Origin: a virus
Taxonomy: Duplodnaviria; Caudoviricetes
Virus record (IMG/VR): IMGVR_UViG_3300033475_000014
Span: 1 to 64,000 of that record
Length of the DNA stretch: 64,000 nucleotides
Direction: 5' to 3' (one strand)
Part shown: positions 385-46,031 of the stretch, piece after piece
Layout of the letters: the number at the start of each line of letters is the position of its first letter
Position numbering within the stretch: position 1 is the stretch's first letter
The notes under the pieces: model-generated
Databases searched by the model: none
What the model was told of the DNA's origin: nothing
Seen by the model: only the letters and a program-made list of their open reading frames with translations
Position numbers and translations under genes: made by a program

Positions 385-411
385 GTTCCTCCTTTTGTGA
401 ACTTTTACGGT

Positions 412-681: not shown

Positions 682-759
682 TTTAGCGAGATAAATCTTT
701 GGGTTCTTATGTTTACCAGCCTGGAAAGCTACTTTATCTCGCCATAAAAATTCACAATA

Positions 760-868
760 GATTGAGTGTATGGTGCTGATAACAAGCAGTTCTAAAGCCA
801 CGGTATCCATGCCCTGTATATACCTCACGATATACACCTACTTGTTACCAGTACTACTACACTCAATC
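760..868 (-). ncRNA. Long-stem RNA, family B copy 1
   Basis: GATTGAGTGTA-G-TAGTACTGGTAACAAG ... CTTGTTATCAGCACCA-TACACTCAATC; homologues at 40873-40977 and 43620-43740. Confidence 0.75.
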
Positions 869-875
869 ACTCAAA

Positions 876-923
876 TTGTTAAAGTGTTGGCGGCCCTCGC
901 ATAGCCGCCAACTGGTTGTTAAA
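876..923 (-). promoter_or_regulatory. boxA-like / hairpin / boxA-like antitermination-type element
   Basis: Minus strand ATTTAACAA (923-916), TTGGCGGC-loop-GCCGCCAA hairpin (911-887), CACTTTAACAATTT (886-873), resembling rrn boxA CTCTTTAACAAT. Confidence 0.5.
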
Positions 924-3075: not shown

Positions 3076-3397
3076 TCTTGCTCTTCTTACTGTACTTATC
3101 TGATTTAACGTATTTACGCTTAGTAGCTGCAGTACGAGACTTTATTACGATTTTTGCGGGAATGGTTACGCTCTCCTTGGGTGGGGCTACCTCGATGTCT
3201 ATACCTAGATGTTCGATGATAGCGTCTACTTTACCTAGAATGGTAGCCTTCCTGATGGTTTTCATAGGTCGGTAGTAAATGCTGTGGTACGACTGGCTAT
3301 AATCGAGTTCTCTGTACGTTGATATATCCTCAGTCAGTGTCTTCCTAAGTTCTTTAATTTCATCTTCAAGTGCCTCTACTCTGCTTCTAGTAATCAT
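3068..3397 (-). CDS. Hypothetical protein
   Basis: ORF tiles the operon. Confidence 0.65.
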   Translation of the reverse strand: MITRSRVEALEDEIKELRKTLTEDISTYRELDYSQSYHSIYYRPMKTIRKATILGKVDAIIEHLGIDIEVAPPKESVTIPAKIVIKSRTAATKRKYVKSDKYSKKSKND

Positions 3398-40003: not shown

Positions 40004-40249
40004 TTACTTAATCTCCTTAGGCTTCTCGACGGTTATCTTAAGAACAGTTTCGTTATACTGGAAGTTTACCCATTGAGATAGCTTCAATGACGTTGACGCG
40101 ATTACTTCATCACGTCTATCATTTGCTTCTCTTACAGCTTCTTTAATAGCGTCATCAAATGCCTGATTGATAGATTGTTTGACTGCACTATCAATACTCT
40201 CTCGTAATGCATCCAAGATGGTGTCATTACTTCCTTTAGATATACTCAT
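40004..40249 (-). CDS. Hypothetical protein
   Basis: ATGA overlap with the NinG-like gene. Confidence 0.65.
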   Translation of the reverse strand: MSISKGSNDTILDALRESIDSAVKQSINQAFDDAIKEAVREANDRRDEVIASTSLKLSQWVNFQYNETVLKITVEKPKEIK

Positions 40250-40623
40250 TTAACCTCTTTTACCTTTCCCTTATAATCCTTAATCAACATTTCCAACTCG
40301 CCATCTGTCCACTTATAAGGAGTTTTCATACTCTCCAAGATGTCGATGGTTTGCTGTCCATATTTTTCAAGCATAAACCTGTAATATCCTGTTAAATTGC
40401 CCTCATCAAACCTATTACAGCTTGAGCATTGGGCGTGTACGTTTCTTTCATCCCACCTAGTCGCCATCCATCTTCGGTTAATAAAGTGGCCAGCATCAGC
40501 GAGTGAGTAGGGTTTTAGGTGTCCGCAAGAACAACATACAAAATGCCCGTCTTTTGAATCCCTCAACCGTATGTATTGAGAAAATATCTTATCTAACTTC
40601 TTAATGAGCTGTTTATTGGCCAC
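40246..40623 (-). CDS. NinG/Rap-like recombination endonuclease
   Basis: LD.IFSQYIRLRD...CCSC...DAGHF..R...TRWDERNVHAQC..CN. Confidence 0.85.
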   Translation of the reverse strand: MANKQLIKKLDKIFSQYIRLRDSKDGHFVCCSCGHLKPYSLADAGHFINRRWMATRWDERNVHAQCSSCNRFDEGNLTGYYRFMLEKYGQQTIDILESMKTPYKWTDGELEMLIKDYKGKVKEVK

Positions 40624-40649
40624 GTCTCTCCTTTTGTGAACTTTTATGG

Positions 40650-40854: not shown

Positions 40855-40872
40855 CCATAAAAATTCACAATA

Positions 40873-40977
40873 GATTGAGCGCATGGTGTCGGAAACAAGG
40901 TCATCGAGCCTGCTCGCCGTTCCCTATGGGTTAAAGGTCTACGTCCAGAATCATTTCCGACACTACTACACTCAATC
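40873..40977 (-). ncRNA. Long-stem RNA, family B copy 2
   Basis: GATTGAGTGTA-G-TAGTGTCGGAAA ... TTTCCGACACCA-TGCGCTCAATC; compensatory changes versus B1 and B3. Confidence 0.75.
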
Positions 40978-40984
40978 ATTCAAA

Positions 40985-41026
40985 TTGTTAAGGTATTGGC
41001 GGCCCTCGCATAGCCGCCAACTGGTT
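40985..41026 (-). promoter_or_regulatory. Hairpin plus boxA-like element
   Basis: 31 nt (40996-41026) identical to 887-917; followed by CCTTAACAATTT. Confidence 0.5.
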
Positions 41027-43003: not shown

Positions 43004-43579
43004 CTATTCTTTCTTCATATCCTTAAGCTGTTGGATGATTGACGATGCGTCTGCGGCTGAGTGAATCCTGTCATATACTGCAACGAGCCACTTTTCATCT
43101 TTACCTAACCCTTCACCGAGCGTCTTGATAAGGTCTAGCTGGTTAGCTGTAGCAGGTCGAGCAGTAGATGCCTTAGGTGGTTCAGGTTGCTTCTTCTTTG
43201 CACTCCCTGCGTTACCATCGTCGTCTTCATCTGCTACCAAGCCAGTCATAGCCATATCGCCATATCGTCGTAGATATGTTACAGCCGATCCAACTGATTG
43301 AGGGTCGTTCTTGACTGGGTTTAGTTTCCACTCGCCAGTGATATGCTCGCCAGACTCGTGGATAAGGTAAAACCTTAATCCATTCTCGTTTTCTAGAATT
43401 GTCGGGACTGCTATAAGTGCTAGTTTGTTCTTCTCAAGTAGCGGCTGTAGAAGCTCCCTAACCTCTGGTAGGGGTGCGTAGCTGTTTTTATAGAATGGAT
43501 TTGTTGCCGACTTATCTACGGCCTTTAGTTCTTTTTGCAGGCTAACAATAGCCTTGGATATTTCTACTCCTATATTCAT
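43004..43579 (-). CDS. ERF-family single-strand annealing recombinase
   Basis: K.ATNPFYKNSYA.L..V...PQ.VGSA.TY.RRY...TG...DEDDDGN. Confidence 0.9.
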   Translation of the reverse strand: MNIGVEISKAIVSLQKELKAVDKSATNPFYKNSYAPLPEVRELLQPLLEKNKLALIAVPTILENENGLRFYLIHESGEHITGEWKLNPVKNDPQSVGSAVTYLRRYGDMAMTGLVADEDDDGNAGSAKKKQPEPPKASTARPATANQLDLIKTLGEGLGKDEKWLVAVYDRIHSAADASSIIQQLKDMKKE

Positions 43580-43619: not shown

Positions 43620-43740
43620 GATTGAGTGTATGGTGCTGATAACAAAGACGGCTTCACAGTCACCTTATGCTTGGTGCATCCGACGGTTGATTCCCCTTAT
43701 CGCATCTTTAGGTTTGCTACCAGCACTATTACACTCAATC
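43620..43740 (-). ncRNA. Long-stem RNA, family B copy 3
   Basis: GATTGAGTGTA-A-TAGTGCTGGTAGCAAA ... TTTGTTATCAGCACCA-TACACTCAATC. Confidence 0.75.
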
Positions 43741-44011
43741 ATTCATTACCCACAAGGGATGGCCTCAGCCTACCCAAAGTCAACTATTACCCCAGTGTGA
43801 CGCCACCCTTTGTGAATAACGAACATGCATACCTTAGTTCACTAATCCCTCCAGTAGGTAGTTGTCGCATTTCGATAAACTGTCGGCTCTATATAAATCT
43901 TTAGCCCGTTCGTAATGCTTCATACTTCCACCATCTCTTGGTAGTAGTTACTTCGTGGCGTTTACCACTCAGTTCTTGCAAATGAATTGTTAAGGTCTTA
44001 CACCTTTGGAC

Positions 44012-44037
44012 ATATCAATCTGCAATTGGTACATCCA
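44012..44037. repeat. 26-bp exact direct repeat, copy 1
   Basis: ATATCAATCTGCAATTGGTACATCCA, also at 44482-44507. Confidence 0.95.
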
Positions 44038-44145: not shown

Positions 44146-44157
44146 AAAGTAGTCTTA

Positions 44158-44198
44158 GTTTACAAAACAGCTGCTCTAACCAGCTGAGCTAAAGCGGC
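44158..44198 (-). pseudogene. 5' half of tRNA-Thr(UGU); att-like site
   Basis: GCCGCTTTAGCTCAGCTGGTTAGAGCAGCTGTTTTGTAAAC; tRNA similarity stops 2 nt past the anticodon loop. Confidence 0.85.
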
Positions 44199-44312: not shown

Positions 44313-44341
44313 ATTGTAGCAAACTGTGTGCGTTTTGTCAA
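44313..44341 (-). promoter_or_regulatory. Leftward early promoter of phage B
   Basis: TTGACA-17-TACAAT with extended TG. Confidence 0.85.
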
Positions 44342-44447: not shown

Positions 44448-44483
44448 ATTGACCTTAGTCCCCTTCTTTGCTATGATATAAAT

Positions 44484-44534
44484 ATCAATCTGCAATTGGT
44501 ACATCCAGCCTCGTCATGAGGGCTGGTATTTTTT
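44484..44534 (+). ncRNA. Candidate ~50-nt antisense sRNA of phage B
   Basis: TTGACC-17-TATGAT promoter (44449-44477) with extended TG; repeat copy 2 forms its 5' end; CCAGCC/GGCTGG hairpin plus T6. Confidence 0.7.
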
Positions 44535-45188: not shown

Positions 45189-46031
45189 ATGTTGCTATCT
45201 GAAGCGATAAGCGAGTTTATTAGATATAAGGTCGTGCGCCGTGGTTCTACCCGCGATACTGAGATTACCTACCGAAGCACTATGAATGGGTTCCTTAAGT
45301 GTGTCGGGGACATTCAAGTAGAAGATTTAACAATTTACACAATAGATTCTTATGCCGATGAGCTATCTCTTAAAGGATACATGCCTAAAACATATCATAA
45401 CAAGATGGCTACTGTTAGAAGCTTTGTAAGATTCCTCTATGCTAAGGACCTTACTAACATACGACCAGAATCTGTAGAACTCCCTAAGTCCGTAAGTCCC
45501 GAGGCTAACTTCCTCTCCCCTGCCGAACAAGAGGTACTGTTATCTGTTATTAAGAAGCCACGTGATCTCGCTATTGTGCGGGTGATGATAGCAAGTGGTG
45601 CCCGAGTGTCAGAACTTACTAATCTGAAATATGACGACTTCTACATTGACTCGATCGTTATCCAGCACGGTAAGGGCGGGAAATCTCGTCCTACTTTTTT
45701 AACTGAACGAGCTGCAGAGAGTTTACAAAACTACCTAAAAACTAAACGAAGAACAGAGTACTTGTTTACAAATAGTTTTGGCGAGAAGCTATCGCGCCAG
45801 TATGTAGCAAGGATAGTCTCACAGTACGCCTCTGACGCTGGTATCGGTAAGAAAGTGACCCCTCATACACTGAGGCACTCATTTGCGACGAATATGCTGC
45901 AGAACGGTGCCCGGGTAGAAATAGTCCAGCCGTTAATGGGGCATGCAAATATTAGGACCACGCTTATATATGCGCACTTCACTAACAATTATCTTAAAGA
46001 AGAGTACCAGAAGTACGCAAGCAAGGCTTAA
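45189..46031 (+). CDS. int: Tyrosine recombinase/integrase (XerC/D-like, no arm-binding domain)
   Basis: GARVSEL, GKGGK.R, HTLRHSFAT, MGHANIRTT.IY; SD AAGGAG. Confidence 0.95.
   Translation: MLLSEAISEFIRYKVVRRGSTRDTEITYRSTMNGFLKCVGDIQVEDLTIYTIDSYADELSLKGYMPKTYHNKMATVRSFVRFLYAKDLTNIRPESVELPKSVSPEANFLSPAEQEVLLSVIKKPRDLAIVRVMIASGARVSELTNLKYDDFYIDSIVIQHGKGGKSRPTFLTERAAESLQNYLKTKRRTEYLFTNSFGEKLSRQYVARIVSQYASDAGIGKKVTPHTLRHSFATNMLQNGARVEIVQPLMGHANIRTTLIYAHFTNNYLKEEYQKYASKA

Follow-up and report, generated by a model that had tools for sequence, protein, structure and literature searches.

Three minus-strand hairpins in a lambdoid-type phage record

The stretch of DNA that we analysed (the window; 64,000 nucleotides) comprises bases 1–64000 of the 76.8-kb IMG/VR virus record of a Saccharibacteria phage that carries lambdoid-type modules on its minus strand (NinG/HNH, ERF recombinase and integrase). 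The record also contains large open reading frames that resemble virion genes, an assignment that is putative except for the terminase, which in its best hits is 30–34% identical to known phage terminases. Megablast against known phages returned no match, and overall the record looks like phage genomes in tandem. A NinG gene occupies 40246–40623 on the minus strand, and its paralogue, an HNH/NinG-like gene, lies at 4–384. The ERF-family recombinase gene is found at 43004–43579 on the minus strand and a tyrosine integrase of the ordinary phage type at 45189–46031. About 1 kb from the integrase gene, a tRNA 5′ half comprising the acceptor, D arm and anticodon stem (44150–44195, minus strand) is broken in its anticodon loop and adjoins two terminator-like hairpins; it is probably an attachment-site remnant. 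The early promoter (44313–44341, minus strand) is surrounded by an exact 26-nt direct repeat, the two units of which (44012–44037 and 44482–44507) are 470 nt apart.

Three hairpins of 109, 105 and 121 nt, here called family B, lie on the minus strand of the window at 760–868 (copy 1), 40873–40977 (copy 2) and 43620–43740 (copy 3). Copies 1 and 2 occupy paralogous gene-free gaps upstream of the two NinG-like genes, whereas copy 3 is part of the early-operon leader, roughly 40 nt upstream of the start of the ERF gene, the first gene past it. Immediately upstream of copies 1 and 2 no promoter is predicted, in keeping with co-transcription with the genes that precede them. Exactly three copies, all in one orientation, were recovered from the whole 76.8-kb record by pattern search, and a covariance model of B likewise finds exactly three.

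Read on the minus strand, the base of B opens with an outer helix of 11 bp. A single purine is bulged next, a U-A pair and an A.C mismatch follow, and the base is completed by a covarying inner helix of 13–14 bp in the window copies (13–15 bp over the family). Its 5′ side reads GAUUGAGUGUA, R, U, A, GUGCUGGUAG... and its 3′ side ...CUACUAGCAC, C, A, UACACUCAAUC. In total, the sequences flanking the apical part, to which we refer as the cargo, form a basal helix of 25–29 pairs. In copy 1, the outer helix pairs 868–858 with 770–760 and the inner helix 854–841 with 786–773; between them lie the bulged G at 857, the U-A pair at 856/771 and the A.C mismatch at 855/772. The copy 1 cargo (840–787) is predicted to form two hairpins, one of them with a GUGA loop. 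Copy 2 displays the same basal motif with an inner helix of GUGUCGGAAAUGA/UUGUUUCCGACAC.

Copies 1 and 3 have the outer helix GATTGAGTGTA/TACACTCAATC without deviation, while one arm in copy 2 is GATTGAGCGCA on the plus strand, where it would produce two A.C mismatches, as opposed to two U.G wobbles on the minus strand. The same asymmetry holds across the family alignment: leaving aside the conserved A.C, we counted 16 G.U or U.G cells against 3 A.C cells on the minus strand. Because wobble cells on the minus strand are mismatches on the plus strand, the structure belongs to the minus strand, which is the gene strand as well. The minus-strand folds of copies 1, 2 and 3 have predicted energies of -52.0, -41.2 and -43.5 kcal/mol, compared with -39.4, -34.4 and -37.7 kcal/mol for the plus strand, and all three copies are more stable than shuffled sequence (z-scores -4.8 to -7.6).

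We examined the pairing in an unfitted MAFFT alignment of eight members, using a 26-pair basal structure and 500 shuffles. Standard pairs fill 94% of the alignment cells, and 12 of the 26 basal pairs have changed on both sides. On four of five measures none of the 500 shuffles reached the observed value; on the fifth, the number of further pair types, two did. Sliding the pairing partners against each other lowered the pairing to 30–45%. Seven of the eight aligned members retain both the bulged purine (G or A) and the A.C mismatch, as does a member found later (L117); in L096, the U-A pair that neighbors the mismatch has become U.G.

The three long-stem hairpins that the earlier note placed at these positions are thus all present, and its account of an 11-bp outer helix, a bulged purine, an A.C mismatch and an inner helix that changes while its pairing is kept is supported by folding and covariation. 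Its plus-strand description gives way to the minus strand in view of the wobble cells and the fold energies. The note had also named a known family such as SRP or 6S RNA as the identity that would speak against its proposal; this identity is excluded, in that Rfam yielded no relevant match to B either at the gathering score over the whole window or at E ≤ 10 in pieces of 1.4–4 kb and in the related metagenome locus L099. A coding function was rejected, as the open reading frames overlapping copies 2 and 3 are not conserved from copy to copy.

A rare family with a common base and differing cargos

Collection scans and a set of loci anchored on NinG yielded six further members, bringing the family to nine distinct members that have a common base and differing cargo. 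Four of the six are from viral contigs (L008/L093, L039/L118, L096 and L117), one is from a metagenome (L098, identical to L099), and one is from a Candidatus Saccharibacteria genome (L100). All members except L008 keep the bulge and the A.C motif; in L008, a continuous 14-bp outer helix instead closes directly around a tRNA-like fold. The 3′ strand contains (G/A)CACCA in seven of the nine. The family is rare: B was found in 1 of 151 sampled Saccharimonadia genomes and in a handful of viral contigs. A search for members with a shorter cargo (a gap of 40–70 nt) found none, and a search with the ERF protein retrieved one distant viral relative only and no additional copy of B. In copy 3, L096, L039 and L117, B ends 20–40 nt before a Shine-Dalgarno site and start codon.

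The cargos have no k-mer in common beyond what shuffled cargos have, in agreement with the earlier description of the apical parts as unrelated in sequence. Two short motifs that seemed to recur, UAGGGGAAC and AAGUAGGUG, did not rise above shuffles, and local alignment scores of the cargos against 16S helix 45 or the 16S 3′ end equaled those of shuffled cargos, so that we rejected a mimic of either. ARAGORN called no tRNA gene either in the window or at ten related loci, among them L008 with its tRNA-like cargo. The comparison of copy 2 with L096 is informative because their stems differ at about 10 positions, mostly in a compensatory manner, and their cargos at only 1 of 57. The cargo sequence itself is therefore conserved, and individual cargos are conserved or exchanged as units.

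The earlier note suggested that the apical parts act as guide- or decoy-like loops and proposed a search for complementary targets. We ran this search in the phage and in host genomes, and it lends the suggestion no support. Within their own 76.8-kb genome, the cargos reach a best complementarity of 11–12 nt (E about 0.3–1), which is the chance level, and cargos 2 and 3 gave chance-level E-values only against 301 Saccharimonadia genomes. The recurrent host matches of cargo 2 are a coding motif, NGEQAL, which occurs in RecA and other proteins. Cargo 3 is a possible exception: it contains UGCACCAAGCAUAAG and has 15 nt in common with a host element made up of a tRNA 3′ end and its trailer. In many Saccharimonadia genomes, UGCACCAAGCAUAAG forms the end of a tRNA or a tRNA-like 3′ segment (N-CCA), after which come a conserved trailer, AGCAUAAGCAUUAUGA, and a terminator. 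With an estimated chance probability of about 0.01–0.03, the match is possibly meaningful, as a lead only.

Some Saccharimonadia genomes carry this host element in tandem arrays (L133, G049:C11:7000–16458; L134, G033:C13:159000–165500; also L114–L116). The unit consists of a segment resembling a tRNA 3′ end (...GAUGGCC-C-U-CCA or ...GCUGC-A-CCA), the trailer AGCAUAAGCAUUAUGA and a terminator, and it repeats on one strand with a spacing of 0.7–2.9 kb. Both the G049 and the G033 array start at a genuine tRNA-Lys(CUU) gene, with the units positioned downstream. The arrays may consist of stacked integrated elements or of att repeats, or they may mark gene ends by a signal not yet described; the unit matches nothing in Rfam.

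boxA, flanking helices and the host rRNA precursor

An rrn-type boxA precedes every window copy on the minus strand. It precedes copies 1 and 2 by 7 nt (CUUUAACAAUU, 874–883, and CCUUAACAAUU, 40983–40992, respectively), and that of copy 3 (CCUUAACAAUU, 43985–43994) is part of the early leader, upstream of the copy by about 245 nt. The pattern YTTAACAAYT occurs five times in the window where 0.98 occurrences are expected, and the three on the minus strand are the ones found one upstream of each copy. At the nin loci of copies 1 and 2, the order is a hairpin that we named H, then boxA, then 7 nt, then B. Hairpin H has an 8-bp stem and the loop UAUGCGAGG and is located 3 nt upstream of boxA at locus 1 (887–911, minus strand); its loop is conserved at locus 2 (40996–41020, minus strand), and it recurs in L098 (about 3245–3270). 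While the 9-nt loop UAUGCGAGG is kept, the stem covaries, with UUGGCGGC/GCCGCCAA replaced by GCUGGCAGC/GCUGCCAGC in L098. The hairpin at 887–911 has no U-run and was not called a terminator. Its position is that of boxB in an rrn leader, which makes it a candidate boxB-like, protein-binding hairpin.

Directly 3′ of B, the arms of a second, long-range helix resembling a leader-trailer helix (UAUUGUGAAUUUUUAUGG / CCAUAAAAGUUCACAAAAGG) enclose the tRNA-like ‘RNA A’ at locus 1, or another RNA. At locus 1 its 5′ arm UAUUGUGAAUUUUUAUGG (742–759, minus strand) directly follows copy 1, and its 3′ arm CCGUAAAAGUUCACAAAAGG (391–410, minus strand) leads into the Shine-Dalgarno site in front of the HNH/NinG-like gene. 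At locus 2 the arms are at 40855–40872 and 40630–40649 (both minus strand), the latter ending at the NinG Shine-Dalgarno site. In L100 (6345–6480), a different pair, GCACUAGAACAUUGCG / CGCAGCGUUCUAGUGC, takes the role of the second helix. Because related phages place tRNA-like RNA inside other perfect helices of at least 10 bp, bracketing of non-coding RNA is a habit of this phage group. In NinG-anchored relatives (L011, L012, L016, L021, L023–L025 and L037), a tRNA-Leu-like RNA (GUGGCGGAAUAG...) is enclosed by a perfect 12-bp helix, UGGCUAUAUAAG / CUUAUAUAGCCA, and several further helices of at least 10 bp around 78–200 nt recur over these relatives.

This arrangement resembles that of rRNA precursors. 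In the latter, leader-trailer helices flank the rRNAs downstream of boxB-boxA, boxC lies within the 5′ strand at a fixed distance past boxA, and the antitermination complex has been proposed to keep the 5′ strand available to the trailer (PMC10250234). In gamma-proteobacteria, boxA has the consensus GYTCTTTAANA, and boxA-Nus regulation reaches past rRNA (PMC5725501). We made the host comparison with Saccharimonadia relatives, from which the genome of the phage’s true host may differ. In one such genome (G213) and its close relatives, the 16S leader reads ...GGUCUUUAACAAUUUGAUUGUGCAAU-A-UCAUCGUC..., with UCAUCG after the A. The G213 trailer pairs with this leader from inside boxA onward, leaves one A bulged on the leader strand and then continues the helix; a second genome (G219) has a 16S leader-trailer of the same design and different sequence. 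Copy 1 and the G213 16S leader have in common the 14-mer CTTTAACAATTTGA, which includes boxA; the longest common word in 200 shuffles was 13 nt, reached once. Past boxA, B continues as GAUUGAGUGUA-R-UAG... and the host as GAUUGUGCAAU-A-UCA.... B and the host pre-16S RNA thus share a layout in which boxA is followed by a helix opening with GAUUG, a single bulged purine on the 5′ strand and more helix. The pre-16S leader-trailer helix is an RNase III substrate in other bacteria, and RNase III (PF14622) is present in all four host genomes tested and absent from the phage. The earlier note’s proposal of a nuclease- or protein-recognised base accordingly finds support by analogy, through the pre-16S-like layout of boxA and helix and the host RNase III.

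Seven of the 301 Saccharimonadia genomes have in their 23S leader a hairpin, UUGAGUGUAGA...UGCACUCAA, that precedes boxA by 15 nt and has 10 + 7 nt in common with the outer helix of B. This match comes from one host clade. The pattern as such was found in eight genomes, compared with five for a reversed-pattern control, which is a chance-level frequency; the hairpin is notable only by its position in an rrn leader. The 23S leaders concerned (L126–L132, from G213, G204, G241, G273, G156, G192 and G108) are conserved from promoter to 23S within the G213 clade (82% mean column identity over five genomes). They comprise the promoter TTGCAA-17-TATAGT, a 51-nt hairpin, boxA AUUAACAAUUUGA and the 23S leader-trailer strand. 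The operon is split in this clade: a terminator of its own closes the 16S gene about 3 kb upstream of the 23S leader.

A possible processing cassette and its relation to known systems

The sequence of elements suggests how B might work. We propose, with about an even chance of being right, that B is a pre-rRNA-like cassette under boxA control that is cut by host RNase III, either to release lineage-specific small RNAs or to trim the downstream mRNA leader. In the course of events that we infer, B would be read from the minus strand within phage early transcripts, where boxA and the B stem, joined at the nin-region copies by the boxB-like hairpin H, would imitate the host pre-16S rRNA precursor. 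boxA would recruit the host Nus-factor antitermination complex. Protected by it from Rho termination, RNA polymerase could cross an untranslated stretch of about 550 nt, and the complex would also help the two distant arms to meet. The stem, at least 25 bp long, would then be cut by host RNase III as pre-rRNA stems are. Cleavage would free a stable small RNA of about 55–100 nt, varying by copy and phage, and would also leave the downstream mRNA, which encodes NinG, ERF or small membrane proteins, with a new 5′ end. Several observations count against this reading: the family is rare, the match to the 23S leader hairpin comes from one host clade and is at chance level by frequency, in copy 3 and L100 boxA lies about 240 nt upstream and is not adjacent to B, and two intrinsic-terminator-like hairpins stand between the early promoter and the boxA of copy 3. 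Moreover, the bulge and the A.C mismatch could equally well be a protein-binding site; the specificity of RNase III is not revealed by sequence.

Four other explanations deserve consideration. B could be an uncleaved, cis-acting leader hairpin, that is, a stable 5′-UTR structure that protects the downstream mRNA against 5′ exonucleases or endonucleases, or adjusts how the following gene is translated, while its apical part drifts freely. The location of B within operons, without a promoter of its own, and the short distance to the Shine-Dalgarno site and start codon in copy 3, L096, L039 and L117 are in line with such a role. Free drift, however, fails for the copy 2/L096 pair, in which the cargo is more conserved than the stems, and does not explain the tRNA-like fold carried by L008; the coupling to boxA and the resemblance to rrn leaders would also be left unexplained, and we consider this explanation unlikely. 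Alternatively, the stem may be a protein-binding platform rather than primarily a nuclease site, with the bulged purine and the A.C mismatch recognised by an RNA-binding protein of the phage or the host, for instance in nut- or put-like antitermination. The non-Watson-Crick features are invariant in all members that have the motif, and B lies near boxA as boxB does in lambdoid nut sites. Yet Pfam scans of the genes beside the copies turned up neither an N-like nor any other candidate RNA-binding protein, an equivalent bulge exists in the host 16S helix with no phage protein involved, and the carriage of different structured cargos would go unexplained. We regard a protein platform as distinctly unlikely.

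The ACCA that follows the inner helix (GCUGGUA...UACUAGC-A-CCA) raises the prospect of a tRNA-like minihelix that mimics a tRNA acceptor end and matures by RNase P and 3′ trimming. Processing of this kind was reportedly described by Hartmann et al. (1995) and Forti et al. (1995) for two phage antisense RNAs, C4 of P1/P7 and CI of P4. The frequent (G/A)CACCA of the 3′ strand would suit a mimic of this sort, as would the tRNA-like character of both the neighboring RNA A and the L008 cargo and the fact that host tRNA genes encode CCA. In the fold, however, CCA is paired with the 5′ strand and not free, and the CCG of L096 is compensated by a U.G pair, a sign that these bases serve in pairing and not as a CCA end. 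Rfam models of C4 RNA and tRNA give no match, and at a best complementarity of 11–12 nt in the 76.8-kb genome no antisense target was found in the phage; both an identity with C4/CI RNAs and, more generally, a tRNA-like minihelix are therefore improbable. An element acting at the DNA level seems barely plausible, whether as a MITE-like insertion bounded by terminal inverted repeats or as a recombination site that folds as a single strand, of which integron attC and filamentous-phage attP are examples. Inverted repeats, an extrahelical base and a variable center do recall attC sites, and a tyrosine integrase is encoded at 45189–46031. But the R″/R′ cores of attC (RYYYAAC ... GTTRRRY) are absent, the ends being GATTGAG/CTCAATC, and the sole integrase is phage-type. 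Nor does B behave as a MITE: target-site duplications are absent, the members are not near-identical, their interiors are unrelated, and the sequences on either side differ or consist of functional RNA blocks. The same direction is indicated by the synteny of the copies, whose surroundings (boxA, hairpin H and the Shine-Dalgarno site) are conserved and of an RNA type, and by the restriction of wobble pairs to the transcribed strand.

Returning to processing by host RNase III, we can tentatively widen the proposal, at a strength that leaves it more doubtful than not. Phages of Saccharibacteria, and perhaps of other CPR bacteria, may build miniature ‘pre-rRNA’ cassettes from a boxB-like hairpin, the host rrn boxA and a copied leader-trailer helix. 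By hijacking the ribosomal antitermination complex together with RNase III, such cassettes would gain a general production line whose small RNAs can be swapped, among them tRNA mimics, a possible tRNA-3′-end mimic and others acting on the host. Our literature searches found no description of such cassettes for CPR phages. If the proposal is true, the phage would re-use the host’s rRNA transcription and maturation pathway for its own non-coding RNAs, going beyond lambda’s use of Nus factors. The signature of boxA, GAUUGAGUGUA, bulge and A.C mismatch could then serve to find phage small RNAs in CPR viromes, about whose RNA biology almost nothing is known. The cargos, mutually unrelated and yet individually conserved, would be candidates for new anti-host or regulatory RNAs, and the bulged purine common to B and the host 16S precursor would point to a recognition feature of RNase III or an assembly factor in Saccharibacteria.

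Known systems share some of these properties. In common with Y RNAs and YrlA, B has a long, bulged stem formed by its 5′ and 3′ ends and a domain that varies and in some cases resembles tRNA, and its inner helix GCUGGU/ACUAGC is similar to the Ro-binding helix GGCUGGUC/GACUAGUC. We rejected this identity, to which the inner helix had drawn attention: no TROVE/Rsr protein was found at the family’s curated cut-off in the phage, the L100 host genome (G001) or 301 Saccharimonadia genomes, and there was no Rfam Y_RNA match at the gathering score or, on small regions, at E ≤ 10. Retron msr-msd and DGR elements were rejected as well, the virus record containing no reverse transcriptase (RVT_1).

A further relation is to the RNase III processing signals of phages, such as the T7 early-region sites R0.3–R1.3 and the hairpins of the lambda N leader and sib. 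Like B, these are multi-copy hairpins of roughly two turns that are interrupted by a bulge or an internal loop. They are found in the intervals separating early genes, or after a nut site and before the first gene, and depend on host RNase III, as B would. Where B carries a cargo domain, the T7 and lambda sites end in small apical loops; they have no rrn-type boxA immediately upstream and are not modelled on a host rRNA precursor. The way in which B ends 20–40 nt before a start codon in four members recalls the lambda arrangement of PL, nutL, RNase III site and N. As in lambdoid nut sites, the B region is an early-operon element of a phage with a boxA, which here matches the host rrn boxA. It departs from them in its order of hairpin H, boxA and long stem, in having no 15-nt boxB after boxA, and in that Pfam scans of neighboring genes found no N-like protein.

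The closest likeness in layout is to the pre-rRNA leader-trailer helices. As in these, a same-strand boxA lies upstream of B, a hairpin takes the position of boxB, and a helix of at least 25 bp is formed from sequences that flank a structured RNA, with its 5′ strand beginning just past boxA; the single bulged purine on the leader strand is shared with the Saccharimonadia 16S precursors. In contrast to pre-rRNA, B holds a non-rRNA cargo of 55–100 nt that differs by copy and sits within phage protein-coding operons, and its conserved A.C mismatch has no counterpart in the host helices examined. With a cargo of 54–96 nt and no 16S or 23S rRNA enclosed, B is a mimic of the pre-rRNA helix and not a member of that class. 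It combines two known kinds of element, the leader-trailer helices processed by RNase III and the boxA elements of phages.
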